Of a DNA stretch of 64,000 bases, positions 32,648 to 49,296 are shown piece by piece (the stretch's first letter is position 1; every line of letters begins with the position of its first letter). The notes under the pieces were generated by a model. That model made no database searches. It worked only from the letters and a program-made list of their open reading frames with translations, and was not told the origin of the DNA. The position numbers were made by a program, and so were the translations under genes. The stretch is from Candidatus Zixiibacteriota bacterium (GTDB lineage Bacteria > Zixibacteria > MSB-5A5 > GN15 > JAAZOE01): NCBI GenBank assembly GCA_043819555.1, contig JBDREQ010000003.1, forward strand, positions 122,973-186,972, in the 5' to 3' direction.

Positions 32648-35581
32648 ATGGACAGTACCTCACAACATACGGCAAGTCTAAGCCCAAGGCTGTTAGAAAT
32701 TGAGAGTCTATTCAAACAGCAAAAAACAAGGCAGGCATTGTCGGCGTTGGAAAAGCTGGCTCAGGTTGAATATTCACCTGAGGGCTTGGATTTGGGGCTA
32801 TATTCTTTATTGCTGGCAGAGCGCGATTTTTGCGACAGCGATTATCAAGCAATGCTTAAAAAATGTCGGGTGGCGTTAGATGAACTAGGTAGAACTAATC
32901 TCAACAATAGAATTGGCAGAATTCAGTATTTGGTTTATTTGGCTCATTCATCGCTTGGTGATCTAAAAGCCGCCGAACAGGCATCGCGCGATTCTCTGGC
33001 TTCGTATCGGCGGGTAAACGATAATGCCGGTATTATTGATGCCTATAATGCCTTGGGCAAGATTTATTTTATCCGATCCGACTATGGTACAGCGGCAGAA
33101 TATGTCAATGAGGCAATCAATTACTCGCCTCCGGATTCAAAGAAAGCGGTACAGCTATTAGGAAATCTTGGGAGAATTTATCTATTAACTGGAGATTTGG
33201 ATAAGGCCCAGGAAAATCTTGAAAAATCACTAAATATGGCCAAAAAGTTGGAACTGGTTTCGTCCATTGTTTCGAAACAACTATCATTGGGCTATCTACA
33301 TATAAGGAGAAGGCATTTTTATCAGGCCGGAATTGAATTAACCGAGGCGGATAACTTAATTCGCGAATTTGGTTTTCAGAGAGAGAGGGTTATTTCGCTT
33401 GAATATCAAGGCGAATTATGCTTCGAGAAACAGGATTTCGTGGCCGCCAAGAATTACTTAGAAGAAGCGATTTCGATGGCCAATGAATTGGCTCCGCAGT
33501 CTTCGTTGATGAGTCAGTGTTTACGTCGTTTGGCTGAAACGGAATTGGAACTGGGGAATGGTGATTTGGCGATGCGTCACGCACAAAAGGCCTTAAATTT
33601 AGCAAAAGAGATTGGTGAAAAGGCTGAAATTGGAATGTCTCATCGGGTAATTTCCGCTGTATTCTTATCGCGCAATGAAACCGCAGATGCCAGGCGGCAC
33701 AGTTCAATGAGTATCGATATTTTGCGCGAGGTTGGTGATAACTTTGAATTAGGCCGTTCGATTATTCAATATGGCGCCATTCCGCTGGCGGGAGTGAGTA
33801 TCAGCGACCGCAAGTCGATTCCGTTATTGCGTGAAGCGGAGAAGATTTTTACGGTTCTCGGCGATGATTATTATGTTTCGCGGTGCCGCTTTGAGCTGGG
33901 AAGTTTATGCCACCATTTGGGAAAAAACGGTGAGGCGCTTGAGTATTTAAACCTATCTTATGAAGGATTTCGCAATGTCGGTGATAAATCAAGGGCGAAA
34001 ACCGTAAGCGATTTTCTGGATTCATTATCTAGGAACGCCGTTAAAAAAGCGCTTTCAAATAAGAATGAATTCAAAATATTTAGTAATCTTATTTCCGGTT
34101 CAGAATTTGAGAATATAAAAAACGATCAATTGGAAAATTTGCTTGAAATATTATGTCGAAAAATCTCTGTTGACCGCGGTTTGATTATTGATTTATTCGA
34201 AAACTGTAATCCTCAGATAAGCGCCGCATACGGATTGGAAGAATCAGATTTTGAATCGGTAATATCAGGATTTTCGGAACTTATGGAAGAGGACCTCATC
34301 ACTGACGAACCAATTTTGATTTTGGACGGATCCAATGGAGCCGAGTTTATGGAATTGGTTCCGTTACGGGAAAATGATATTTCCTGTTTGATTGTTTTGC
34401 CGCTGACATTTGCCTCAAAAGTAATTGGTTATATATATCTTGATCGATTGAGTCAATCGCCGGGAAAAGGTATCAATCCGTTTAGTCAAAATGATATTAA
34501 CTTTGCAGTCGGGTTTGCTGATTTGGTTGCGTTTAAAACGACGGATTTGCAGAAAGAGAAGCTGTTGGCAGATAATTTACGTCTGAAGGCTCAGTTATTG
34601 GAATCCTGTACGTTCCCAAATATTATTACTCAATCGCGATTGTTTATGGAGATATTAGTACGCGTTCAGCAGGTGGCGAATTCCAATATGGCCATTTCCA
34701 TCACGGGAGAAACCGGAACGGGGAAGGATTTATTGGCCAAAGCTATACATTATAATTCGTCCCGACGCGATAAACGATTTATATCAGTCAATTGCGCGGC
34801 ATTGCCGGAATCTCTTTTAGAGTCGGAGTTGTTCGGGTATAAAAAGGGAGCGTTTACCGGTGCAGATCGCGATAAACCCGGCCTGTTCGAAGAGGCTGAC
34901 GGCGGCACATTTTTCTTAGATGAAATTGCCGATATGCCTTTATCACTTCAAGCCAAAGTGTTGCGCCTTTTGGAGAATATGGAAATTACCCGCCTGGGAG
35001 ATACGCATCCGCGAAAGGTTGATGTCCGGGTGATTTCGGCGACGAATAAGGATTTAAAAAAGGAGATGGATCTTAGGCATTTCCGGAGTGATTTATATTA
35101 TCGATTATGTGCTTTGCATTTTTCCATTCCAGCCTTGCGTGATCGCAAGGAAGATATTCCTGTTTTGGCAGAGCATTTTCTTGATGGCGGTAATTGCCAG
35201 ATTATGCCGGATGCGATGAAATACCTAATTGATTATGATTGGCCGGGGAATGTTCGAGAACTTGAGAACGAAATCAAAAAAACGGTACTTTTGGCTAACA
35301 ATGAGGGGCCAATAACTGCCGCTCTGTTATCGCGGAGAATTCTTGGTGAGGATCAGATTAATGTAATGAGTATTCCGAACGAAGAGGCATATTTTACCGA
35401 GGGCATCTTTTCGCTATATGACTATATTGCTGAATTTGAGAAGCGATTTATTGTCAAGGCCTTAAAAGAGCAACGTGGGATTAAAAAGCGGGCGGCTGAT
35501 TCTCTGAAAATACCGGAATCAACGCTGCGTTTAAAGCTGAAACAATATGATATCGACCCAAAGAGGATTGATATAAATTAG
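32648..35581 (+). CDS. TPR-GAF-sigma54 enhancer-binding protein with Fis-type HTH
   Basis: About 450-aa TPR array, GAF-like GYIYLD, GETGTGK, ESELFG, GAFTGA, FLDEI, WPGNVRELEN. Confidence 0.93.
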   Translation: MDSTSQHTASLSPRLLEIESLFKQQKTRQALSALEKLAQVEYSPEGLDLGLYSLLLAERDFCDSDYQAMLKKCRVALDELGRTNLNNRIGRIQYLVYLAHSSLGDLKAAEQASRDSLASYRRVNDNAGIIDAYNALGKIYFIRSDYGTAAEYVNEAINYSPPDSKKAVQLLGNLGRIYLLTGDLDKAQENLEKSLNMAKKLELVSSIVSKQLSLGYLHIRRRHFYQAGIELTEADNLIREFGFQRERVISLEYQGELCFEKQDFVAAKNYLEEAISMANELAPQSSLMSQCLRRLAETELELGNGDLAMRHAQKALNLAKEIGEKAEIGMSHRVISAVFLSRNETADARRHSSMSIDILREVGDNFELGRSIIQYGAIPLAGVSISDRKSIPLLREAEKIFTVLGDDYYVSRCRFELGSLCHHLGKNGEALEYLNLSYEGFRNVGDKSRAKTVSDFLDSLSRNAVKKALSNKNEFKIFSNLISGSEFENIKNDQLENLLEILCRKISVDRGLIIDLFENCNPQISAAYGLEESDFESVISGFSELMEEDLITDEPILILDGSNGAEFMELVPLRENDISCLIVLPLTFASKVIGYIYLDRLSQSPGKGINPFSQNDINFAVGFADLVAFKTTDLQKEKLLADNLRLKAQLLESCTFPNIITQSRLFMEILVRVQQVANSNMAISITGETGTGKDLLAKAIHYNSSRRDKRFISVNCAALPESLLESELFGYKKGAFTGADRDKPGLFEEADGGTFFLDEIADMPLSLQAKVLRLLENMEITRLGDTHPRKVDVRVISATNKDLKKEMDLRHFRSDLYYRLCALHFSIPALRDRKEDIPVLAEHFLDGGNCQIMPDAMKYLIDYDWPGNVRELENEIKKTVLLANNEGPITAALLSRRILGEDQINVMSIPNEEAYFTEGIFSLYDYIAEFEKRFIVKALKEQRGIKKRAADSLKIPESTLRLKLKQYDIDPKRIDIN

Positions 35582-35608
35582 ATTGAGATTTGATAAATAA
35601 TAAATAAA

Positions 35609-35643
35609 AAAGGGGCCCGTCAAAATTCCGGCGGGTTTTTTTT
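35609..35643 (+). terminator. Probable terminator
   Basis: cccgtc...ggcggg followed by a long T tract. Confidence 0.55.
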
Positions 35644-35687
35644 GAATCTATCAGTCTGGAAAAATCTATGAAGGGCCAGGAGTAATC

Positions 35688-38519
35688 GTGAAGAATTTAT
35701 ATTGCGTTTTTTTTATAGTAATTTTTACGTTTTCCTTATCTCTTGGAGACGATTTATATAAAGTTAAATTGAGAAATCAGGCCGATGCGGAATATATGAA
35801 TTCATCAGAAGTCGTATCAATAGCCGTACTTTCCCGGGGCTATTTGATTATTGCTGATAAATTGCAATCCGCCGCTTTGGAATCCCAAGGCATAGAAATA
35901 TCGTTGATTGAAAGTGATGTTGAAATCGACAGACTGGTTTTTGACATGCGGTACGATAAAAAGGGTTATGGCGTAGATGATGTTGTGTTTGAGGAAGAGG
36001 GAATTTGCATCTTGCGTCGAGATGTGAACGAGAAATCGATTACAGGCAATGAATTTGATTTTATGCCGATTTCGCAAGCGGATTTGGTTTTTACATATAT
36101 TGAAAGCGTTGAGATCAATAAAGATAAGTTATTATTTCCTCCCGGACTCGATGATTTAATAGATTCGGTAAGCAGCTCAAGATTATTTGCAGTTACGCGG
36201 AATCTCCAAAATTTGGGAGAACGAGTCGCCGGTTCGGCGGGTAGTGTTGATGCTCAGGCGTTGCTTTTGGAAAGATTGGATTCCTTTGGGTATGATTCGT
36301 TATATCTGGATGAATTTACGGCTTATATACAGGGAGGCAATAAATCCTGCCGCAATGTCATTGCTGTCAAGCCGGGCATTGTAATGCCTGAAGCCAAAAT
36401 AATCATCGGCGCTCACTACGATGCCGTTCCCGGTTCTCCGGGAGCCGATGATAATGGATCGGGGACATCGGCGGTTATAGAACTGGCAAAAATATTTAAG
36501 AATATTGAGACGAATATAACGTTTATTTTTGCCCTTTTTGATGCTGAGGAATGGGGTTTGTATGGGTCTCATCATTACGCGAGTAATGCATACGCTAATG
36601 GCGAGGCAATTGTATTTATGATTAATCTTGATATGATTGGCGCTAAGAATAATGATGAAGACATGGTCAGGATTTATCATGGGGATGATTTGAAATATAT
36701 CAATGTTATTCAGCAACTGGCGGATTCATTATTAAATTTTGAAGCTTCAATGGCGGGTACTTCATCCCGCTCTGATCATTATAGTTTTCAATCCCTGGAT
36801 TATGACGTATCATTTTTCCAGGAATGGGAGTTTTCGGAAGTTTATCATACTTCAAGTGATAATACCAATCAAATGGATTTTGGGTATATGGCGCAATTAG
36901 TGAAGATCGCTTTGGCGACGGCCTATACGGTAGATCGTTTGGCATCGCCGAATCGGTCAGTGTCGGTTACGTATCCTAAGGGGTTGCCATTATCGTTTGT
37001 AGCGGATGAGTTGTCTTCGTTTGATATTCAAGTTGAAGGGATTCATGGCGGCTCGGTTATGTCGGGGACGGTTGAATTTCATTGCTCAATTGATGGCGGG
37101 GATTATGTTACGATTCCTTTGACTGAGGAAAGTCCAGGTTTGTATGAAGTTATATCAGAGGGTTATCCAGCGGGAACGCCAATAAAATATTATGTAAGCG
37201 CCCGGGAAGCAGCGACGGGATTGCCAGGCGGCGAGGCGGTGTCAAAGGCCAACGCAGGATCGTATTTATATTTTGAGTCATTGGTATTTGAGGGTGATTT
37301 TTCATTGGACCATGGTTGGATTGTCGATGGTGATGCGGTTGACGGTCAATGGGAGCGTGGGATACCTGATGGAGATGGCAGTAATGGCGATCCTTTGGGA
37401 GATTTCGATGGCGATGGCTGGTGTTATTTGACGGGTAATTCTTTGGGAGATTCTGATATAGATGGCGGTCAAACTTCACTTATTTCGCCGGTATTTGATT
37501 TGTCGGGGGGATATGGGGAGGTTCGTTATTCGGTGTGGTTTAGCAATGGTATCGATCGTGAGGATTTGTTTCATATATATTTAAGCGGAGATGATGGCAG
37601 CACATGGGTTAAAGTTGAGACACTGGGTCCATTTTCTGATGACGCGGCCGGTGGCTGGCAGAGTCATTCGTTTATTGTCAATAAATATATTGATTTAAGT
37701 TCGACTGTGCGGGTGAAGTTTGAAGCCTCTGATTATGGTAAAGAATCGGTAGTTGAAGCTGGAGTAGATGGATTTAAAGTATTGCTTCATAGCTCTGAGC
37801 CGTTTGAGATTCCGGAGCAGTCATTTGGGGAGTGGACGAAGTATCAGCCCTTTTCGGCAATCTTGAAGGCGACCGGCGGACTGGGAACTCGGACATGGTT
37901 TGATGCCAATGGAAGTTTTGGTTTAGCCGGATTGACATTAAATCCGGATGGAACCGCAGATGGTTTTCCGACGAAGACGGGTTCATTGAGTTTGTTGACC
38001 GAGGCTATTGATGGAATCGGCAATACGTCCCAGCAGACGGTGTCCTTTATGGTTAATGACGCAGTGGCGCTGCATACGTTCAGTCTTCCGGGAGGTATGA
38101 TACGGGAGAGTTATTCGGAGCTATTGGATGCCGACGGAGGAACGGGTGAGTTGACATGGGTGGATAAATATGGAGATTTGGAGGGGACAGGATTGACGTT
38201 ATCATCGACGGGGCTGGTTTCAGGTGTGGTTGAAGATCCCGGGTTGGTAAGTTTTACGGTTTATATTTCTGATATAACAGGCAGCGATCAGGAATGGACA
38301 TATGAGATGAATTTTGAATATCTTGACGGTGATGCCAATGGAGACAATACCGTTAATGTCGGTGATGCGGTGTTTATTATCAATCATGTATTCAAGCAGG
38401 GGCCGGCTCCCTATCCTTACCTTGCGGCGGATACAAATTGCGACGGTACTGTAAATGTCGGTGATGCTGTTTATTTGGTGAATCATATCTTCAAGGGCTG
38501 GCCGGCGCCGGGATGTTGA
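35688..38519 (+). CDS. Secreted M28 peptidase with Ig-like repeats and C-terminal dockerin
   Basis: AHYD, GADDNGSG, AEEWGL, NLDM, SDH, YHT; GDANGD..VNVGDAV twice. Confidence 0.9.
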   Translation: MKNLYCVFFIVIFTFSLSLGDDLYKVKLRNQADAEYMNSSEVVSIAVLSRGYLIIADKLQSAALESQGIEISLIESDVEIDRLVFDMRYDKKGYGVDDVVFEEEGICILRRDVNEKSITGNEFDFMPISQADLVFTYIESVEINKDKLLFPPGLDDLIDSVSSSRLFAVTRNLQNLGERVAGSAGSVDAQALLLERLDSFGYDSLYLDEFTAYIQGGNKSCRNVIAVKPGIVMPEAKIIIGAHYDAVPGSPGADDNGSGTSAVIELAKIFKNIETNITFIFALFDAEEWGLYGSHHYASNAYANGEAIVFMINLDMIGAKNNDEDMVRIYHGDDLKYINVIQQLADSLLNFEASMAGTSSRSDHYSFQSLDYDVSFFQEWEFSEVYHTSSDNTNQMDFGYMAQLVKIALATAYTVDRLASPNRSVSVTYPKGLPLSFVADELSSFDIQVEGIHGGSVMSGTVEFHCSIDGGDYVTIPLTEESPGLYEVISEGYPAGTPIKYYVSAREAATGLPGGEAVSKANAGSYLYFESLVFEGDFSLDHGWIVDGDAVDGQWERGIPDGDGSNGDPLGDFDGDGWCYLTGNSLGDSDIDGGQTSLISPVFDLSGGYGEVRYSVWFSNGIDREDLFHIYLSGDDGSTWVKVETLGPFSDDAAGGWQSHSFIVNKYIDLSSTVRVKFEASDYGKESVVEAGVDGFKVLLHSSEPFEIPEQSFGEWTKYQPFSAILKATGGLGTRTWFDANGSFGLAGLTLNPDGTADGFPTKTGSLSLLTEAIDGIGNTSQQTVSFMVNDAVALHTFSLPGGMIRESYSELLDADGGTGELTWVDKYGDLEGTGLTLSSTGLVSGVVEDPGLVSFTVYISDITGSDQEWTYEMNFEYLDGDANGDNTVNVGDAVFIINHVFKQGPAPYPYLAADTNCDGTVNVGDAVYLVNHIFKGWPAPGC

Positions 38520-38550
38520 GATTTGTATTCAATAGAAAGAAACGGTTGTC

Positions 38551-41388
38551 ATGCTATTAAAAATTGCCTCATTATTATTTGCGCTGTTTATATTTGTATC
38601 GATTACTGGGGCTGATGATTTATATAAAGTTAAATTGAGAAATCAAGCCGATGCGGAATATATGAATTCACTGGATGTTCGGCCGGCCTTGAAAATATAT
38701 CAAGCATATTTAGTGGCTGCTACTGCCGAGCTGGCCTCGGATATTAAAAAATCGGGGATGGAAATAGGTCTACTTGCCCCGGACGTAGATTTTGATAATT
38801 TATTTATAGATTCCCGCCGGGATAGCAAATACGCAAAGGATTATCCTTCAATTTATGAAGACTCTCGGTTAAGGCTTGTAGAAGTTGCCGAAAGAGATAA
38901 GACGGCGGTAAATTTACCAAGTGAATTTTGGCCGATCAGCTTAATGGAATTTTCTTTCCGGTTTACGGAGCCGAAAAAATATGATATCGGCGCGCTCTAT
39001 AATGCCCCGGATTTGGAATATATAATGTCTCTTGTGGAAACCGATTCGTTAATATCATATACCGAAAAGTTGCAGGCTTTTAACGGTCGTGCGGTGGGAT
39101 CCGATTCCAATTATGCTTCGAGTCAGTGGATTTTTGATAAACTTCAGGAGTTTGGATATAATCCGGAGTTCGATAATTTTATTGTATCAAGATATGGCGG
39201 CCCTGTCAACGCCCGCAATGTAGTCGCGACTAAAACTGGCCTTGTTTCGCCTGATAATCAGATGATATTATGCGCCCATTTTGACGCCGTTCCGGGATCT
39301 CCGGGTGCGGATGACAATGGTTCAGGAACGGCCGGAGTTTTGGAGTTGGCAAGAGTATTGAAAGATATTGAGGTTGATTTATCATTTGTTTTCATTTTAT
39401 TTGACGCTGAAGAAATAGGATTGTACGGCTCGTTTCATTATTCCGAAGAGGCATTTGCATCAAGCGATAACATTGAATACGTTCTCAATCTGGATATGAT
39501 AGCTCACTATCCAAACTCTGACAGCGCCAATCTTTTTCACAGTGATTTTTTGGAATATGCCTATTTATGTTCTCACTTGGGCGATTCCTTGCTGGATTTG
39601 ACAATTGAATTTGGAGGAACCTCAGGCGGTTCGGATCATTATCCATTTTCAACTTATGGTTGGGAAGTTGGTTTTCTCGCGGAACGTATTTTTTCAGATG
39701 TATATCACAGCAGTCATGACAGTACCACTTATATGAATTTTGAATATATGACAAGGATGGTGCAGCTTGCAGCGGCGACTACTTATTCAATCGATTATGC
39801 CTTTATTCCCGAGCCGACGCTGGCGATTAAGTTTCCGGATGGAGTACCTTTGGCAATTGTGGCTGACGAGCAATATTTATTTAGAGTAGACATTAATGAA
39901 CTATACGGCGGGCAACATCTATCAAATAGTTGCCAATTGCATTATTGGAATCAAGATGGATCCCCGGTAATCGAAGATATGACAGAAGTTGATTATGGGC
40001 GCTATGAGGTATATTTCCCGGCGCTTGGCAGTGGCAGTTATTTTGATTTCTTTGTTACTGTTCAGGATATTGATGGCGGATTATCTTATGCCGGTTCGTA
40101 TGAAAATCCTTATCGTGCAACATCTCTTCATTTTGAAGATATTCTGATTTCTGATAATTTTGAAACGGATTTGAGTTGGACCACAAGTTCTGACGCAACT
40201 TCCGGATTTTGGGAGAGGGATGTCCCAGTAACTGGCGGTTATGGGGGAGAGCCGCCATCGGATTATGATGGAAGCGGCTATTGTTTTGTGACTGGAAATT
40301 CCGAAGGGTCAGATGTTGATTATGGCACAGTCTCGCTCTATTCTCCAGCATTTGATGTCAGCGACGGATACGGTTTGGTTAATCTCGCATTCTGGTTTAG
40401 TAATGGCTCACCCAAATCAGATATTTTAAATATATATTTGCGAAAACAGGGGATTAGCCAGTGGGCTTTCGTTAAGTCTTTTGGGCCCGTCGGGAATGCT
40501 TCCGGAGGATGGGACCAATTTTCTTTCTGGGTAAATGATATTTATCCTGCGGGAGGAGTGTTTGAGCTCAGAATTGATGCGTCCGATGAAGGTTTTGATT
40601 CACAAGTCGAAGCCGCCATTGACGCATTTTCAGTGACCAAATATTTCCCGGATCCATTGACGATATTGGATGCCACTCCTGCCGACTGGACGATGGGACA
40701 GCCATATTCTTTTCAACTCAATGCTGAAGGAGGGGTCGGTGAATATCTTTGGGTCGATTACAATCAAGGATTGGCGCCGTTTGGATTGTTGATTTCTATT
40801 GAAGATGGTACAATATCCGGCATTCCAATAGCTTCGGGAGAGGTTGAATTCGTGGCATGGATTGCGGATGAAATGTATAATGATAACGAAAAGGCCTTTT
40901 CATTTGTTATAAATCAGCCGGTTGATCTGATTACGGAAACAGTCCCTGAAGGAGAAGTTGACGTTGCATATTATGAACTGCTTGAATGCAGCGGCGGTAC
41001 AGGAATAAAAATATGGTCGGAATTAGATTCCAATCTTGAGTCAGCAGGATTGACTCTATCCGAAAGCGGGGTATTATCCGGGACAGTAGTTGTCCCTCAG
41101 GAAATATCATTTGCAGTTCATGTTGAAGATATTGCCGGAAGTTTCGATGAACATGAGTTCTCGATTGCATTTACCTATATTTATCTTCCCGGTGACGCTA
41201 ACGGTGATGAAAATGTCAATATTGGCGACGCGGTATTTTTGATCAACCATGTTTTTAAGGGAGGCCCTGCGCCTTATCCTCTGATTTCAGGTGACGCGAA
41301 TTGTGATGGCGATGTTAATGTAGGTGATGCTGTTTTTATCATCAATCATGTGTTTAAAGGCGGTCCGGAACCGGGATGCAGCGATTGA
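38551..41388 (+). CDS. Secreted M28 peptidase paralog with Ig-like repeats and C-terminal dockerin
   Basis: AHFD, GADDNGSG, AEEIGL, NLDM, SDH, YHS; dockerin repeats. Confidence 0.9.
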   Translation: MLLKIASLLFALFIFVSITGADDLYKVKLRNQADAEYMNSLDVRPALKIYQAYLVAATAELASDIKKSGMEIGLLAPDVDFDNLFIDSRRDSKYAKDYPSIYEDSRLRLVEVAERDKTAVNLPSEFWPISLMEFSFRFTEPKKYDIGALYNAPDLEYIMSLVETDSLISYTEKLQAFNGRAVGSDSNYASSQWIFDKLQEFGYNPEFDNFIVSRYGGPVNARNVVATKTGLVSPDNQMILCAHFDAVPGSPGADDNGSGTAGVLELARVLKDIEVDLSFVFILFDAEEIGLYGSFHYSEEAFASSDNIEYVLNLDMIAHYPNSDSANLFHSDFLEYAYLCSHLGDSLLDLTIEFGGTSGGSDHYPFSTYGWEVGFLAERIFSDVYHSSHDSTTYMNFEYMTRMVQLAAATTYSIDYAFIPEPTLAIKFPDGVPLAIVADEQYLFRVDINELYGGQHLSNSCQLHYWNQDGSPVIEDMTEVDYGRYEVYFPALGSGSYFDFFVTVQDIDGGLSYAGSYENPYRATSLHFEDILISDNFETDLSWTTSSDATSGFWERDVPVTGGYGGEPPSDYDGSGYCFVTGNSEGSDVDYGTVSLYSPAFDVSDGYGLVNLAFWFSNGSPKSDILNIYLRKQGISQWAFVKSFGPVGNASGGWDQFSFWVNDIYPAGGVFELRIDASDEGFDSQVEAAIDAFSVTKYFPDPLTILDATPADWTMGQPYSFQLNAEGGVGEYLWVDYNQGLAPFGLLISIEDGTISGIPIASGEVEFVAWIADEMYNDNEKAFSFVINQPVDLITETVPEGEVDVAYYELLECSGGTGIKIWSELDSNLESAGLTLSESGVLSGTVVVPQEISFAVHVEDIAGSFDEHEFSIAFTYIYLPGDANGDENVNIGDAVFLINHVFKGGPAPYPLISGDANCDGDVNVGDAVFIINHVFKGGPEPGCSD

Positions 41389-44176: not shown

Positions 44177-44417
44177 TTTTGCCATGTAAATGGCAGATTT
44201 TGGATTTCTCCAGATAAATATCCATAAATATCAGCCGAAATTAACAAAATAGTAGATTATTTCCCATATCTTTGCGTATATATGCTGGATAAAGATATTG
44301 TTTATGCCTGGATTTCAAGGGTCAGATAAGTTGGCTTATTAAAGAACCTTAGAATCTGTTCTAAGCCGAATATTGCGGCATGAAAACCGAGCACTTTTAA
44401 ATAAGGGTAAAAGATTA

Positions 44418-44840
44418 ATGTTTTCAGCAAAAGCTCATTATGGTCTTAAGGCAATCATTTATTTGGCGAAAATGGAAGGGAAAGGTCCGATCCAGGCAAA
44501 GCAGATAGCCAGTTCACAGAATGTTCCTGTAAGATATTTAGAGCTGCTATTATCCCAGCTTAAAAAGGCACGAATTATTAATTCAAACCGGGGAAAATTG
44601 GGGGGATATTTTTTGGGGGGATCGGCTTCCAGTATAAAAGTTTATGATATTATTATAGCATTGGAAGGACAAATCTCGTTCATATCGTCACATGAGATTA
44701 AGGAAAACGATTTAATAGAAATCGTAGTTTCCAGTTACTGGAGTTCGGCCGAAGATTTATTGATTAGGAATTTGCAGCAGACGACTATCGAAGAATTGCT
44801 TCAGAAAACCGAAAAAGACGAGCAAATGTATTACATTTAA
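44418..44840 (+). CDS. Rrf2-family regulator (CymR-like, no Cys ligands)
   Basis: YGLKA, YLE.LL..LK, SNRG..GGY; directly upstream of cysK. Confidence 0.88.
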   Translation: MFSAKAHYGLKAIIYLAKMEGKGPIQAKQIASSQNVPVRYLELLLSQLKKARIINSNRGKLGGYFLGGSASSIKVYDIIIALEGQISFISSHEIKENDLIEIVVSSYWSSAEDLLIRNLQQTTIEELLQKTEKDEQMYYI

Positions 44841-44853
44841 TGGGAGATGAATT

Positions 44854-45789
44854 ATGTCGGGAATAATGGGTAATGTAATAGATTTAATAGGTAAAACGCC
44901 CCTTTTGGCTCTGGATCGGATAGCTGGTGGTTTACCAGCGCGCATTCTGGGCAAAATGGAATCGCAGAACCCGGCTTCATCAGTAAAAGATAGAATTGGA
45001 TATGCCATGATCGCCGCCGCGGAAGAAGATGGGCTGCTTAAAGAAGATTCCGTTATCATAGAACCGACTTCCGGGAATACCGGTATTGCCCTTGCGTTTG
45101 TATGCGCGGTCAAAGGTTATAAGCTAATTCTTACGATGCCTGAAACGATGTCGGTCGAGAGACGGAACTTGCTCAAAGCATACGGGGCGGAAATAGTCCT
45201 GACTCCCGGCGCGGAAGGTATGAGCGGCGCGGTATCGGCCGCAGAGGAGTTGGTTGGGAAGTACCCTGGCTCGGTCATGCTACAACAGTTCAATAATCCT
45301 TCTAATCCCTTGATTCATGAGAGGACTACCGGGCCGGAGATTTGGGAAGATACCGGTGGAAGAATTGATGCGATTGTTACAGGTATAGGTACGGGGGGAA
45401 CCATCATGGGAATCACCAGATTTATTAGAAAGCATAATCCGAATTTCAAAGCAATTGCGGTCGAACCAGAGGCATCGCCGTTTTTATCCAAGGGTGAAAA
45501 GGGACCTCATCCTTTGCAGGGAATTGGCGCAGGTTTTAAGCCCGGAATTGTGGATCTTGACCTGATTGATGAAATTGTGACTGTCACCAATGATGAAGCG
45601 ATCGAGACCACCCGTAATATTGTCAGGAAGGAAGGAATACTGGCGGGAATATCTTCGGGGGCTAATGTTGCGGCAGCAATTAAGGTGGCGTCGAGACCGG
45701 AAAATAAAGGCAAAACAATTGTTACCTTAATTTGCGATACCGGAGAAAGGTATCTCTCGACCCCAACATATTCGGAATTTGATTTTTGA
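44854..45789 (+). CDS. cysK: Cysteine synthase A
   Basis: SVKDR, EPTSGNTG, GTGGT, HPLQGIG, GISSG, DTGERYLS. Confidence 0.96.
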   Translation: MSGIMGNVIDLIGKTPLLALDRIAGGLPARILGKMESQNPASSVKDRIGYAMIAAAEEDGLLKEDSVIIEPTSGNTGIALAFVCAVKGYKLILTMPETMSVERRNLLKAYGAEIVLTPGAEGMSGAVSAAEELVGKYPGSVMLQQFNNPSNPLIHERTTGPEIWEDTGGRIDAIVTGIGTGGTIMGITRFIRKHNPNFKAIAVEPEASPFLSKGEKGPHPLQGIGAGFKPGIVDLDLIDEIVTVTNDEAIETTRNIVRKEGILAGISSGANVAAAIKVASRPENKGKTIVTLICDTGERYLSTPTYSEFDF

Positions 45790-45962
45790 TATTTCTGTTT
45801 CAATATAAAATGGTTGGAACAAGTATATGTCTCATTATTAAACATGCGGTCATTAATTGGAGCTATTTACATCGGCGCCTCATTTTTTTCGCTCATTATA
45901 AGTTATTGCACTACAATAAATAAAGAAGTTGTTTTTCGCATTTCTACTCTTTTGGGTCATCC

Positions 45963-45978
45963 TGGCACACATTCTGCT
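45963..45978 (+). promoter_or_regulatory. sigma54 -24/-12 promoter
   Basis: TGGCAC-acatt-CTGCT with exact GG-N10-GC spacing. Confidence 0.65.
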
Positions 45979-45989
45979 TAAGTTATACT

Positions 45990-46153
45990 AATTCGATTCC
46001 TCCATGAGGAATGTGAGGGGAAGAGGATGGCAAGGTGATTGCCCTCCCGATTATAAAAGGGGGATATCGCGGAAGGTTTGAGGGGACTCCGCGGTATTCA
46101 AATCGAATCTAAGGGGGATCAGCCTGCAACTGCACTGCAGGCTGATTTTTTTT
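45990..46153 (+). ncRNA. Candidate structured small RNA ending in a strong terminator
   Basis: 8-bp closing stem enclosing four hairpins; atcagcctgca...tgcaggctgat+T terminator at 46118-46153. Confidence 0.5.
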
Positions 46154-46268
46154 GTATATTCCTCGATGCTCCATTTCCGGCGATTTCGTGAAAGATTCGA
46201 TAAGCCGGCGCAAAAAATAAAGCCTTCCTCAGATTATAGTTTTAAAACCTCATGAATTATGTATAATA

Positions 46269-47276
46269 ATGTATAAAGGTGCTATAATGATTGGTGAAAT
46301 GATTGAAAGATTGGCGGCAAAAGAAACGGGCCGAGCCGAATGCCCGATCGCTATTAGTCATAAGAGAATGTGCATTGTTTATCCGAAGTATCTATCTTTT
46401 GCCCCTTTTATATCTTCAAGCGAGGAAAATGGCAAAAATAAGACTGAGCATTACCGATTTGACTGGCAACCGGGGTGGTCTTTAAACGGGGCGATATCGC
46501 TGTTTTCAAATGTTCATAAGATAATTCGGTTGGTTCGTCAATCTGCCACAATTGAGATGTACAGTTTTTCGAATAAATTGGACTTTCCTATTCTATTTAT
46601 TCTAACTATGATAGGCAGCTTATTTGGAGTCAGGATTATACTGAACGATTATTGTTTCAATCGGAATAATGAAAATGGAAAAGCATGGTTTCTTTATTGC
46701 CTCAGCGATTTGGTAAGGCTGGGAGATAGAAGTAGAAGGATCGGAAAATATTTATCATCCACCATTTTTGTCAATTCCTATGAATCTGAAGATTTGTCAA
46801 AATATATGAGAATCCCGAATGTTTCGATTGCACCCAGGGTTATGATATATGGTGATTTTGAGCATAAGAAAATTATCGCCCTCATTAACCGAGCCTTTGA
46901 TATCGTAAAGCAAAAATATCCCAGGACAGAATTTATATTGATATGTCCGGCATTTTATGACGAGGAGCAGATGTCGGTTTTTAGACGGAAACCGACAATA
47001 GAAATTGTTCGGCCAAAAGATGAAAATGATTTAAGAGATTTATATTCGGAGGCAGATATTTTGGCGGTTTTATCTTCCGGAGGTAGTAATTGTTATTTTA
47101 TTAAGCGAGCTAATGCGGCCGGTATCCCAGTAATACTAAATGATAAGAATTATGCGCAGACCAATGGCAATGCCAAGCGCATTTTAATATCTCGAGATAG
47201 TTATAGCTCATTAGCCGGTGAAATAATTAAGCTGGTTGATGACAAAGAATATTATCGCACTTTTTCTCAGCCATAG
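46269..47276 (+). CDS. Divergent GT-B (GT4-like) glycosyltransferase
   Basis: LINRAF..VKQKYP, LYSEADI, ANAAGIPVI, LAGEIIKL; the usual ExA motif is not evident. Confidence 0.6.
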   Translation: MYKGAIMIGEMIERLAAKETGRAECPIAISHKRMCIVYPKYLSFAPFISSSEENGKNKTEHYRFDWQPGWSLNGAISLFSNVHKIIRLVRQSATIEMYSFSNKLDFPILFILTMIGSLFGVRIILNDYCFNRNNENGKAWFLYCLSDLVRLGDRSRRIGKYLSSTIFVNSYESEDLSKYMRIPNVSIAPRVMIYGDFEHKKIIALINRAFDIVKQKYPRTEFILICPAFYDEEQMSVFRRKPTIEIVRPKDENDLRDLYSEADILAVLSSGGSNCYFIKRANAAGIPVILNDKNYAQTNGNAKRILISRDSYSSLAGEIIKLVDDKEYYRTFSQP

Positions 47277-48090: not shown

Positions 48091-49296
48091 GTGCCGGTAT
48101 ATTCATATTCGAGAATAGGGTGTTTTGAAAATTGCCCCCGCCAGTACAAGTTTAAATATATAGAGAAGCCTCCAATTGAGAAGGTAACCGGAATCGAAGC
48201 GTTTATGGGTACAATGGTTCATGATGCCCTCGAAAAATGTTACCTCATGGCGATGTCTGAAAGAATCCTTGATGAAGAGGAATTAATCACGACATATAAA
48301 AAGGGTTGGTCTGATTCGAAACCGGATAATCTTAGAATTGTCAATTCGGATATTACGGAGGATGAGTTTATTCGAGTTGGGGAAAAAGCGCTGCGCTTGT
48401 ATCACCAAAAACATTTTCCATTTGATGATGAACTGACAATTGGACTTGAGAAAATGATTGTTTTTTCACTTGATGATGAAAACCAGTACAAAATGCAAGG
48501 TTTTATTGATCGATTATCCCGGGATGGCTCAGGTCGTTTGCGGATTCAGGATTATAAGACCAGCGGGCGGTTGCCTACTCAGGAGGAGGTTGATTCGGAT
48601 AGGCAGTTAGCTTTATATCAAGTGGCGGTCGATAAGATGTGGCCGGATAATAATGGAATCGAGTTGGTCTGGCACTACCTGCGTTTTGATACGAGTTTAG
48701 TGTCGTATCGAAGTTCGGATGCGTTAGACAATGTATGCCGGGAATATATCAAGAAGATAAAGAAGATTGAGAAGGCTGTTGTTTTGGATGATTTTCCAGT
48801 CAATGAAAGCCGTTTGTGCGATTGGTGCGAGTATAATTCAATTTGTCCGGCGAAAGTGGATATAAATATTTTATCTGAAAAAAAGCAAACTGAATTAGCT
48901 TTTTTGGGTGCGGAAGCGCAAAAAATCCTTGTTGATGATTATATCGCTTATGAGGTGGGTATTAAGGATCTGTTGGAGAAACAAAACCGGATAAAAGAAA
49001 AGTTGCTGGAGCTTGGAAAAGAAGGCCGCGATATTTATATCAGGGGAAGCGGGGGAAATGGTGTGTTGATTTCTGTTCGTAAGTCGGAAAAATTGCCGAC
49101 CAAATCGTCTGATTCCGGGAAATTTAAGGCCATAAGTGAAGTGATAAATGATGCGGGGATATTAGAGAACTATTCTTCACTCGATATAAGGAAGGTGCAG
49201 AGGGCATTTGATAATTTTGATTTTCCGGACAGTGTTCAAAAAAGGCTGGCAGAGTTTATAGAAGCGACCGTTAGGGGATCGATAAAAATTAAATAG
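48091..49296 (+). CDS. PD-(D/E)XK nuclease, RecB/AddB/Cas4-like, with 4Fe-4S cysteines
   Basis: SYS...CPRQY, G..VH, GFIDR, DYKT, QLALY, LCDWCEY...CP. Confidence 0.88.
   Translation: MPVYSYSRIGCFENCPRQYKFKYIEKPPIEKVTGIEAFMGTMVHDALEKCYLMAMSERILDEEELITTYKKGWSDSKPDNLRIVNSDITEDEFIRVGEKALRLYHQKHFPFDDELTIGLEKMIVFSLDDENQYKMQGFIDRLSRDGSGRLRIQDYKTSGRLPTQEEVDSDRQLALYQVAVDKMWPDNNGIELVWHYLRFDTSLVSYRSSDALDNVCREYIKKIKKIEKAVVLDDFPVNESRLCDWCEYNSICPAKVDINILSEKKQTELAFLGAEAQKILVDDYIAYEVGIKDLLEKQNRIKEKLLELGKEGRDIYIRGSGGNGVLISVRKSEKLPTKSSDSGKFKAISEVINDAGILENYSSLDIRKVQRAFDNFDFPDSVQKRLAEFIEATVRGSIKIK

Follow-up and report, generated by a model that had tools for sequence, protein, structure and literature searches.

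Among the small regulatory RNAs (sRNAs) that depend on sigma-54 and an enhancer-binding protein (EBP) are Qrr, with the activator LuxO, and GlmY, with GlrR; CrcZ and CrcY, which answer to CbrB, combine a -24/-12 promoter with an upstream activator site (UAS). The part of one report that deals with CrcZ describes several A-rich motifs that bind Hfq/Crc (PMC5113210), and the portion of another that deals with G-rich sponge RNAs presents RosA of Bacillus subtilis and RsaI of Staphylococcus aureus as sponges of the C-rich sRNAs RoxS/FsrA and RsaE/RsaD/RsaG, respectively, with RsaI, like RosA, being CcpA-regulated (PMC8216469). Here, we describe a locus in a 64,000-nucleotide stretch of the genome of a Candidatus Zixiibacteriota bacterium (contig JBDREQ010000003.1, positions 122,973 to 186,972; hereafter the window) that very probably represents a genuine gene for a small regulatory RNA not described before, with a sigma-54 promoter and several runs of G that resemble ribosome-binding sites. 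The predicted sRNA (45989..46153, +) is ~165 nt long and consists of 31 % G and 18 % C, its start being placed by promoter geometry and its end by the U-tract of a terminator. We consider it highly likely that this is a free-standing gene for a trans-acting sRNA, activated by an NtrC-type regulator acting on sigma-54 polymerase, with transcription beginning at about 45989 and stopping within 46118-46153.

The arrangement resembles that of CrcZ/CrcY in pairing a -24/-12 promoter with an upstream activator site, and that of CrcZ in repeating a short motif; unlike the A-rich motif given for CrcZ in the source cited above, the repeated motif is A-GGGG(G), and no Hfq was found in the source genome (G000, 97 % complete). 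In contrast to CrcZ/CrcY, Qrr and GlmY, with which it has no sequence or structure similarity, the RNA gene has no activator gene adjacent to it. Our literature search returned no paper pairing Zixibacteria with an sRNA, so that no regulatory RNA may have been reported from this uncultured phylum before the G-tract RNA and the C-rich RNA introduced below.

The evidence for a gene begins with the promoter. The -24/-12 element TGGCAC-N6-TGCT (TGGCACacattcTGCT, 45963..45978, +) has canonical GG-to-GC spacing and is the sole TGGCAC-N6-TGCW match in the window (0.09 expected; at least one match in 9/100 shuffles), which bears out the sigma-54 promoter that a preliminary description had proposed, with a predicted start near 45989. 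The genome encodes rpoN, and other sigma-54 promoters of the same form precede protein genes in it. Across the 16 homologues that we recovered, the -24 sequence GGCA[C/T] and the spacing are kept without exception, while the -12 element is TGC in 12 and TGT, TGA or TAC in the remaining four (G006, G007, G028 and G066).

Upstream of the promoter lies a putative enhancer of four half-sites (45797..45843, +), namely GTTTCA at 45797, TGGAAC at 45815, GTCTCA at 45829 and TTAAAC at 45838, which stand at -166, -148, -134 and -125 relative to the -24 element; the array starts 8 nt past the stop codon of cysK. A TGAAAC/GTTTCA half-site array at conserved distances is found in 15/16 homologues, being missing only in G047. 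When 176 loose sigma-54-like sites of the source genome were compared, a single one had three or more half-sites upstream, and it was this one (four half-sites; runner-up two); the three-half-site pattern likewise occurs once in the genome. As the array is unique in the source genome, its regulator seems to serve the sRNA alone, and the putative UAS and -24/-12 promoter appear dedicated to this RNA. In the mechanism that we propose, an NtrC-type response regulator would bind the array ~125-166 nt upstream and activate sigma-54 RNA polymerase at 45963-45978, so that transcription would run from ~45989 to the terminator at 46118-46153.

A pattern scan of genome contigs for the combination of UAS and promoter gave 53 loci, seven of which were inspected; these included two from Zixibacteria, one from Desulfobacterales and two from Pseudomonas. 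The Pseudomonas loci (two of ~23 near-identical entries) were set aside, the promoter-like match sitting within a transporter gene. At the Desulfobacterales locus (L139, G160:C195:63500-72500), a gene for a 624-aa sigma-54 activator is followed by genes for a C-S-lyase-like aminotransferase, a symporter and a cysteine-desulfidase-like protein, and there are two sigma-54 promoters, each with TGAAAC-N8-GTTTC 130-148 nt upstream, the half-site being identical to that of the sRNA.

The 3' boundary is marked by an intrinsic terminator (46118..46153, +) formed by a ATCAGCCTGCA/TGCAGGCTGAT stem and T8, with an 11-bp core stem and 18 pairs in the computed fold. A simple terminator scan made no call there; the hairpin is revealed by the fold and by the homologues. 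In the 11-sequence alignment, 4/10 stem pairs change on both sides (TA/CG, CG/AT, AT/GC and TA/CG/AT/GC), with 9-11 of the 11 sequences paired at each position, and the long, GC-rich stem is followed by a tract of U7-8. The long terminator of the preliminary description is thus upheld, and the covariation that it had named as a check is seen in this stem.

The body of the RNA proved less distinctive. The full-length RNA reaches a folding energy of -67.2 kcal/mol (z -4.66; 0/200 shuffles equal), and the body without the terminator gives z -2.68, a value equalled by 2/200 shuffles; body-only z values for five homologues are -2.68, -1.32, -2.64, -1.14 and -3.56. The branched fold is thus only modestly better than chance. 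The closing stem seen earlier is real as a pairing, attcgatt (45991-45998) being the exact reverse complement of aatcgaat (46101-46108) and paired in the minimum-energy fold. Three of the four enclosed hairpins (ttcctc/gaggaa, ggcaa/ttgcc and atatcgcgga/tccgcggtat) also form, the fourth (ctccc/ggggg) appearing only as 3 pairs. Even G001, a genome of the same genus, does not keep the multi-branched fold, and conservation in this RNA lies elsewhere.

Nor does the locus look like a small protein gene or a known RNA family. The 25-codon open reading frame (ORF) at 46004..46081 (+), already called weak, is judged not to be a gene: its ATG is ATA in G001 and no ORF is common to the sRNA homologues. 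Rfam returned no match at gathering score in the window, and at E <=10 over 45940-46170 it gave 8 chance-level matches, the best of which (E 0.56) falls on the terminator; no Csr/Rsm family is among them. The view that this is a novel sigma-54-dependent non-coding RNA gene therefore holds, with promoter, UAS and terminator in homologues from 16 genomes and no Rfam match.

Conservation was followed outwards from the source genome. BLAST against 61 related genomes found a single orthologue, in G001, with 79 % identity and the same neighbours and promoter; the six other short matches that were inspected fell within coding sequence. When the two sequences were combined into a covariance model, weak matches appeared in four more genera, each with a -24/-12 element, G-runs and a strong terminator. 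We then inspected the region 3' of the cysK orthologue in the 14 genomes of family f1 (source genome included): half-sites, promoter, G-rich RNA and terminator were present in 11/14, with the promoter 167-179 nt past the end of the cysK match and RNAs of 110-187 nt. In these 11, the cysK orthologue (68-91 % identity) lies directly upstream of the element, while in the other three (G005, G008 and G013; two genera; 95, 89 and 87 % complete) the next gene directly follows cysK and no sRNA element intervenes.

When 151 genomes of the order were searched with an 11-sequence model, five homologues were gained, in G028, G152 and G153 (family f4) and in G066 and G047 (family f3). The f4 homologues keep Rrf2-cysK upstream, whereas those of f3 have other neighbours. 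The total of 16 homologues is a lower bound on account of the low sensitivity of the model outside the family. In the source genome, the conserved neighbourhood Rrf2-cysK-sRNA, syntenic in f1 and the three f4 genomes, opens with a gene for an Rrf2-family (CymR/IscR-like) regulator (44373..44840, +; Pfam Rrf2 E 3e-29, NCBIfam rrf2_super above cut-off), followed by cysK, encoding cysteine synthase A (44854..45789, +; TIGR01139 cysK 434 bits against a cut-off of 351).

Other matches of the 11-sequence model were discarded. Those restricted to the 3' part of the RNA were terminators, and the match in G050 was false; G005 gave one weak match (E 0.0035). Sixteen further weak matches were fetched, of which 12 had a sigma-54-like promoter and 4 had none. 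Eight of the 12 promoters are followed at short distance by an obvious start codon and ORF, among them flagellar and small heat-shock-like ones, and none of the 12 combines the G-runs of the RNA with a terminator. A metagenome pattern scan gave 4 loci, all of them chance matches lacking promoter or terminator.

The synteny bears on one rival explanation, a cis-acting leader or attenuator, according to which the sigma-54 promoter serves downstream genes of exopolysaccharide type and the terminator is overcome under some condition. In the source genome, the gene after the sRNA, which is not part of the RNA, encodes a GT1-like glycosyltransferase (46269..47276, +; Pfam Glycos_transf_1 E 5.7e-7). 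At all seven homologues examined (G000, G001, G002, G007, G010, G011 and G066), the next gene is on the same strand ~30-250 nt past the terminator, and in several genomes it is a glycosyltransferase gene or a relative of the gene that directly follows cysK in G005, G008 and G013. Against this stand the terminator itself, long, GC-rich, ending in U7-8 and conserved by covariation, the lack of any conserved alternative anti-terminator pairing, and the variation of the downstream gene, which may be a glycosyltransferase, another ORF or, in G047, an integrase-like ORF. A sigma-70-like -35/-10 pair between the terminator and the downstream gene of the source genome points the same way, although as weak evidence. 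We regard a cis-acting leader as very unlikely.

Returning to the free-standing sRNA gene, we sought its activator among the 17 sigma-54 activator genes of the source genome, four of which have no orthologues in the three RNA-negative genomes of the family. Two of them encode NtrC-type REC-AAA+-HTH response regulators: EBP-A (G000:C31:32755-34110), in an operon and preceded by a short kinase, and EBP-C (G000:C40:17202-18515), in an operon and preceded by a solute-binding protein and a HAMP histidine kinase. Orthologues of EBP-A (67-90 % identity) and of EBP-C (63-88 % identity) are each present in 10/10 of the other RNA-positive family genomes, while the negative genomes hold only 42 % paralogues of the former and best matches of 37-41 % to the latter. 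Among the intact activator genes, only these two match the presence and absence of the RNA exactly in the family genomes, making EBP-A and EBP-C candidate activators of the sRNA promoter. Likely orthologues of both are also found in G028, G153, G066 and G047, and since the two occur together in RNA-positive genomes of other families, these genomes offer no choice between them. The recognition helix of EBP-A resembles that of the Desulfobacterales activator at L139, which is a weak hint only.

The other activators were less suitable. EBP-B fits the RNA pattern in only 5/10 genomes, and the fourth gene without orthologues in the RNA-negative genomes is broken. The activator nearest to the sRNA, a 977-aa protein with TPR, GAF, AAA+ and HTH_8 domains (window 32648-35581), is not favoured because it has an orthologue in the RNA-negative G013. 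A sigma-54 activator gene at G000:C39:90433-91418 (-) contains a TAG in frame and may be a pseudogene, unless the assembly is at fault.

What the RNA carries was next read from the parts that selection has kept. Four A-preceded G-tracts were recognized: tract 1, AGGGGA (46016..46021, +), in the 13-nt block GTGAGGGGAAGAG; tract 2, AGGGGGA (46058..46064, +), in the 14-nt block AAAAGGGGGATATC; tract 3, AGGGGA (46081..46086, +), in the 17-nt block GGAAGGTTTGAGGGGAC, all three blocks being identical in G001; and tract 4, AGGGGGA (46112..46118, +), which abuts the terminator at a place where most homologues have a G-run. The source genome and G001 thus share four tracts in identical blocks of at least 13, 14, 17 and 18 nt despite the overall identity of 79 %, and their substitutions cluster between these blocks, where the stems vary. 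The most widely conserved is tract 2, the CAAAAGGGGG column of the 11-sequence alignment. Over the whole set of homologues the primary sequence diverges fast, while a G-rich (22-39 %), C-poor (14-22 %) composition and the A-preceded G-runs persist.

The excess of the motif is clear from counts. AGGGGG occurs in 10/10 non-redundant f1 RNAs (16 seen against 1.48 expected), and in a test set of 14 non-redundant bodies (1707 nt, leaving out G153 and G001, which is near-identical to the source genome), AGGGG was seen 33 times against 6.2 expected (z 11.9; 0/1000 mononucleotide shuffles) or 12.8 expected from dinucleotide shuffles, 0/300 of which reached 33. The sRNA locus is the top AGGGG cluster of the entire source genome. 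Each RNA body holds 1-7 G-runs of at least four, whereas C-runs of at least four are missing in 15/16 bodies; with almost no C-runs available, the G-tracts cannot be masked within the RNA. The mean unpaired probability is 0.53 at G-run positions against 0.42 overall, i.e. slightly more open.

GGA, the motif on which the preliminary description had relied, behaves differently. It had counted about seven GGA in this RNA and that number is right; purine-rich composition alone gives as many. In the test set, GGA is not enriched (51 against 54.5 expected, z -0.6; 63.1 expected from dinucleotide shuffles, z -2.3), and neither are ANGGA (13 against 15.0), A[A/U]GGA (6 against 7.1) or AGGAG/GGAGG (8 against 11.1). 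The final base is C or U, not A, in about half of the tracts (GGGGGC 7, GGGGGA 7). Judged by these counts, A-GGGG(G), not GGA, is the selected motif, and it appears Shine-Dalgarno (SD)-like: A(A)GGGG(G) stands 4-20 nt before the start codon as SD in ~63/2897 crude gene calls (~2 %), and the 3' end of the 16S rRNA, CCTCCTTTCT, is complementary to the G-tract with one G.U. The SD-like A-GGGG(G) tracts, which could not be masked intramolecularly, would then be the working parts of the RNA. The motif takes its most extreme forms in the homologue of G066 (L152), with seven G-runs in 153 nt, and in that of G152 (L156), where AAAAGGGGC is repeated three times in tandem at a spacing of ~10 nt ahead of an AGGAGG-like word.

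These counts weigh most directly on the proposal that the RNA is a CsrB/RsmZ-type sponge, whose GGA-containing tracts would each take up CsrA, several dimers per RNA, and thereby lift its repression, beside FliW. It is true that csrA, the presence of which had been named as a check, is found in the source genome (G000:C25:150229-150381; PF02599 80.2 bits), between flgK and flgL and with canonical RNA-binding residues in its translation, and that CsrA is the sole global RNA-binding regulator found there. As in CsrB/RsmZ/RsmY, we are dealing with a short purine-rich RNA that has repeated SD-like motifs and a strong terminator, and each RNA body holds 2-6 GGA. Some GGA contexts, such as AGAGGATGG at 46022-46030, are near what we take to be the consensus from systematic evolution of ligands by exponential enrichment with CsrA, and the size, the purine richness and the G-run/GGA before the terminator presumably resemble those of RsmZ/RsmY.

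The enriched core is a G-run, however, about half of the tracts lack the final A, and neither GGA nor ANGGA nor A[A/U]GGA exceeds what composition predicts. The likely CsrA sites of the organism itself, in the flagellin leader, are of AAGGA type (CAAGGAC, CATGGAC and CAAGGAGG at the SD). The RNA has no similarity to the CsrB/RsmZ/RsmY covariance models, its sigma-54 promoter with an EBP array contrasts with the GacA/UvrY-type promoters that we assume for those RNAs, and G005 and G008 have csrA but no such RNA. The distribution of csrA is otherwise uninformative either way because the gene is universal in the order (152/160 genomes; 110/110 high-quality ones). Finally, the host has a FliW-type CsrA system, and such systems are described as FliW-controlled rather than sRNA-controlled in the relevant parts of three accounts (PMC4894983, PMC7829508 and 10.1101/2020.07.02.184341). 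Given that GGA is not enriched, that the tracts often lack a final A and that FliW is present, the CsrB/RsmZ reading is possible but not favoured, and we consider it unlikely; protein sequestration is no longer the best-supported reading. Were CsrA binding true, a FliW-type Csr system would here have an sRNA as antagonist, such systems being described, as far as those parts go, as being without one.

The flagellar cluster that holds csrA (G000:C25:149000-156700; L039, L041 and L084) runs flgK, csrA, a small ORF and flgL, then fliW and flagellin. Its CsrA, of 104 aa, is extended at the C-terminus by a long basic stretch. In the flagellin leader, a sigma-28-like promoter is accompanied by AAGGA-type sites, of which one covers the SD, an arrangement that resembles what we take to be that of the Bacillus subtilis hag leader.

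An SD-like motif could also make the RNA a decoy for some other reader of SD sequences, either a G-tract-binding protein or the anti-SD of the 30S subunit, which the tracts would titrate. The motif itself, an A-rich sequence followed by GGGG(G) that can pair, with one G.U, with the 16S 3' end and is the real SD in ~2 % of crude gene calls, suits such a decoy, as do the 3-7 tract copies per RNA and the tandem tract repeats (~10-nt spacing) in G152 and G153. No candidate protein was found for this role, titration of ribosomes by a small RNA would need very high abundance, and no result obtained here specifically favours it; we think it quite unlikely. A broader form of the idea, a signal-induced Shine-Dalgarno decoy whose SD-like tracts compete with mRNAs for a RoxS-like C-rich sRNA, for CsrA or for the 30S anti-SD, seems to us similarly improbable. 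If it were true, the decoy would set the level of translation initiation globally, like a rheostat, and the pair of G-rich and C-rich sRNAs would have an origin separate from that of its counterpart in Firmicutes.

Instead, we tentatively suggest, by analogy with RosA and RsaI, that in this Hfq-less lineage the G-tracts may form G:C pairs directly with RNA that is rich in C/U. The likeliest form would be an SD-like decoy, or sponge, for a C-rich sRNA that targets SD sequences; alternatively, the tracts might pair with C-rich anti-SD elements in mRNA leaders. In either form, a two-component signal would, through the RNA, relieve or reset repression of translation initiation.

A possible partner was found by scanning the source genome for intergenic clusters of C-runs. 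This C-rich sRNA (G000:C66:42969-43096, +; L238:372-497) is ~128 nt long with 36-40 % C and three hairpins (z -5.36), and its C-runs lie in the single-stranded 5' part, in loop 1, in a linker and in the terminator loop, an architecture that we take to be that of RoxS/RsaE-type sRNAs. It has no Rfam match. With a five-sequence model, one copy was found in 12/14 family genomes and none in other families at E 1e-5; the top weak matches in G006 and G028 (one each) were a terminator or coding sequence. Covariation is strong: across the 12 sequences, 91 % of cells are paired and 11/28 pairs change on both sides (0/500 shuffles equal), including 9/10 pairs of helix 2, and the unpaired C-runs are kept in 11-12/12. 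A conserved GGCGTCATA just upstream of this RNA may serve as its -10 region. The predicted pairing with the C-rich sRNA is at -14 to -15 kcal/mol for each G-tract, and tract 3 would form 8-9 bp with loop 1, a match that is statistically not distinctive.

RosA and RsaI appear to be the closest functional precedent for the G-tract RNA. To the extent that they are characterized in the portion of PMC8216469 introduced above, the likenesses are a stand-alone sRNA of ~150-230 nt that exposes several G-rich regions but has none rich in C, in a host without detected Hfq whose genomes also hold a C-rich sRNA with C-runs in its loops. The differences, within the same portion, are the lack of any sequence relationship, the different phylum, the number of tracts (3-7 against 2-3) and the sigma-54/EBP promoter here; in addition, pairing at our locus is only predicted and co-occurrence is imperfect. 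If pairing between G-tracts and C-tracts is true, the RoxS/RosA sponge logic would be recurrent in Hfq-less bacteria and not peculiar to Firmicutes. The locus offers a complete, testable circuit: a sigma-54 promoter with an enhancer apparently dedicated to it, two response regulators as candidate activators, a strongly selected short motif and a possible partner RNA.

Several observations count against this interpretation at one step or another. The start, the end and even the transcription of the sRNA are deduced from sequence. The three RNA-negative genomes represent two genera, so that the activator profile rests on 1-2 loss events, and the phylogenetic profile is unable to separate EBP-A from EBP-C. 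Pairing as good as that of the C-rich sRNA is reached by 40/200 of its dinucleotide shuffles, and among 12,994 intergenic windows the C-rich sRNA ranks 410th. Searches for it failed in G006, G007, G028, G153 and G066, all positive for the G-tract RNA, and it occurs in G005, G008 and G013, all without it. The tandem arrays, such as the three AAAAGGGGC repeats of G152, resemble protein-binding arrays at least as much as pairing seeds. Finally, genome scans yielded no mRNA target set: counting C-runs in translation-initiation regions singled out no coherent group of genes, whole-RNA duplex scores did not differ from the reversed control, and complementary k-mer clusters were mostly AT-rich words.

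An intergenic stretch of the source genome (G000:C63:47856-47937, +), upstream of a 149-aa ORF, has three CUCCCCU-type motifs within 80 nt that are complementary in principle to the G-tracts. Neither a promoter nor a terminator was recognized there, and G000:C63:47855-47936, considered as a possible second G-tract locus, was rejected for want of both.

Elsewhere in the window, the gene for the 977-aa activator is followed by two paralogous genes for ~945-aa proteins (35688-38519 and 38551-41388), both of which combine a peptidase M28 domain with a dockerin at the C-terminus; the strict TGGCAC-N6-TGCW scan found no canonical sigma-54 promoter among these activator and M28-dockerin genes (window 32648-41388). 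Downstream of the glycosyltransferase gene and a 218-aa ORF, for which there was no family match, a gene at window 48091-49296 encodes a 401-aa PD-(D/E)XK nuclease with a weak Cas4/AddB-like match. In a DNA sequencing run, one 172-nt contig spans 45823-45994.

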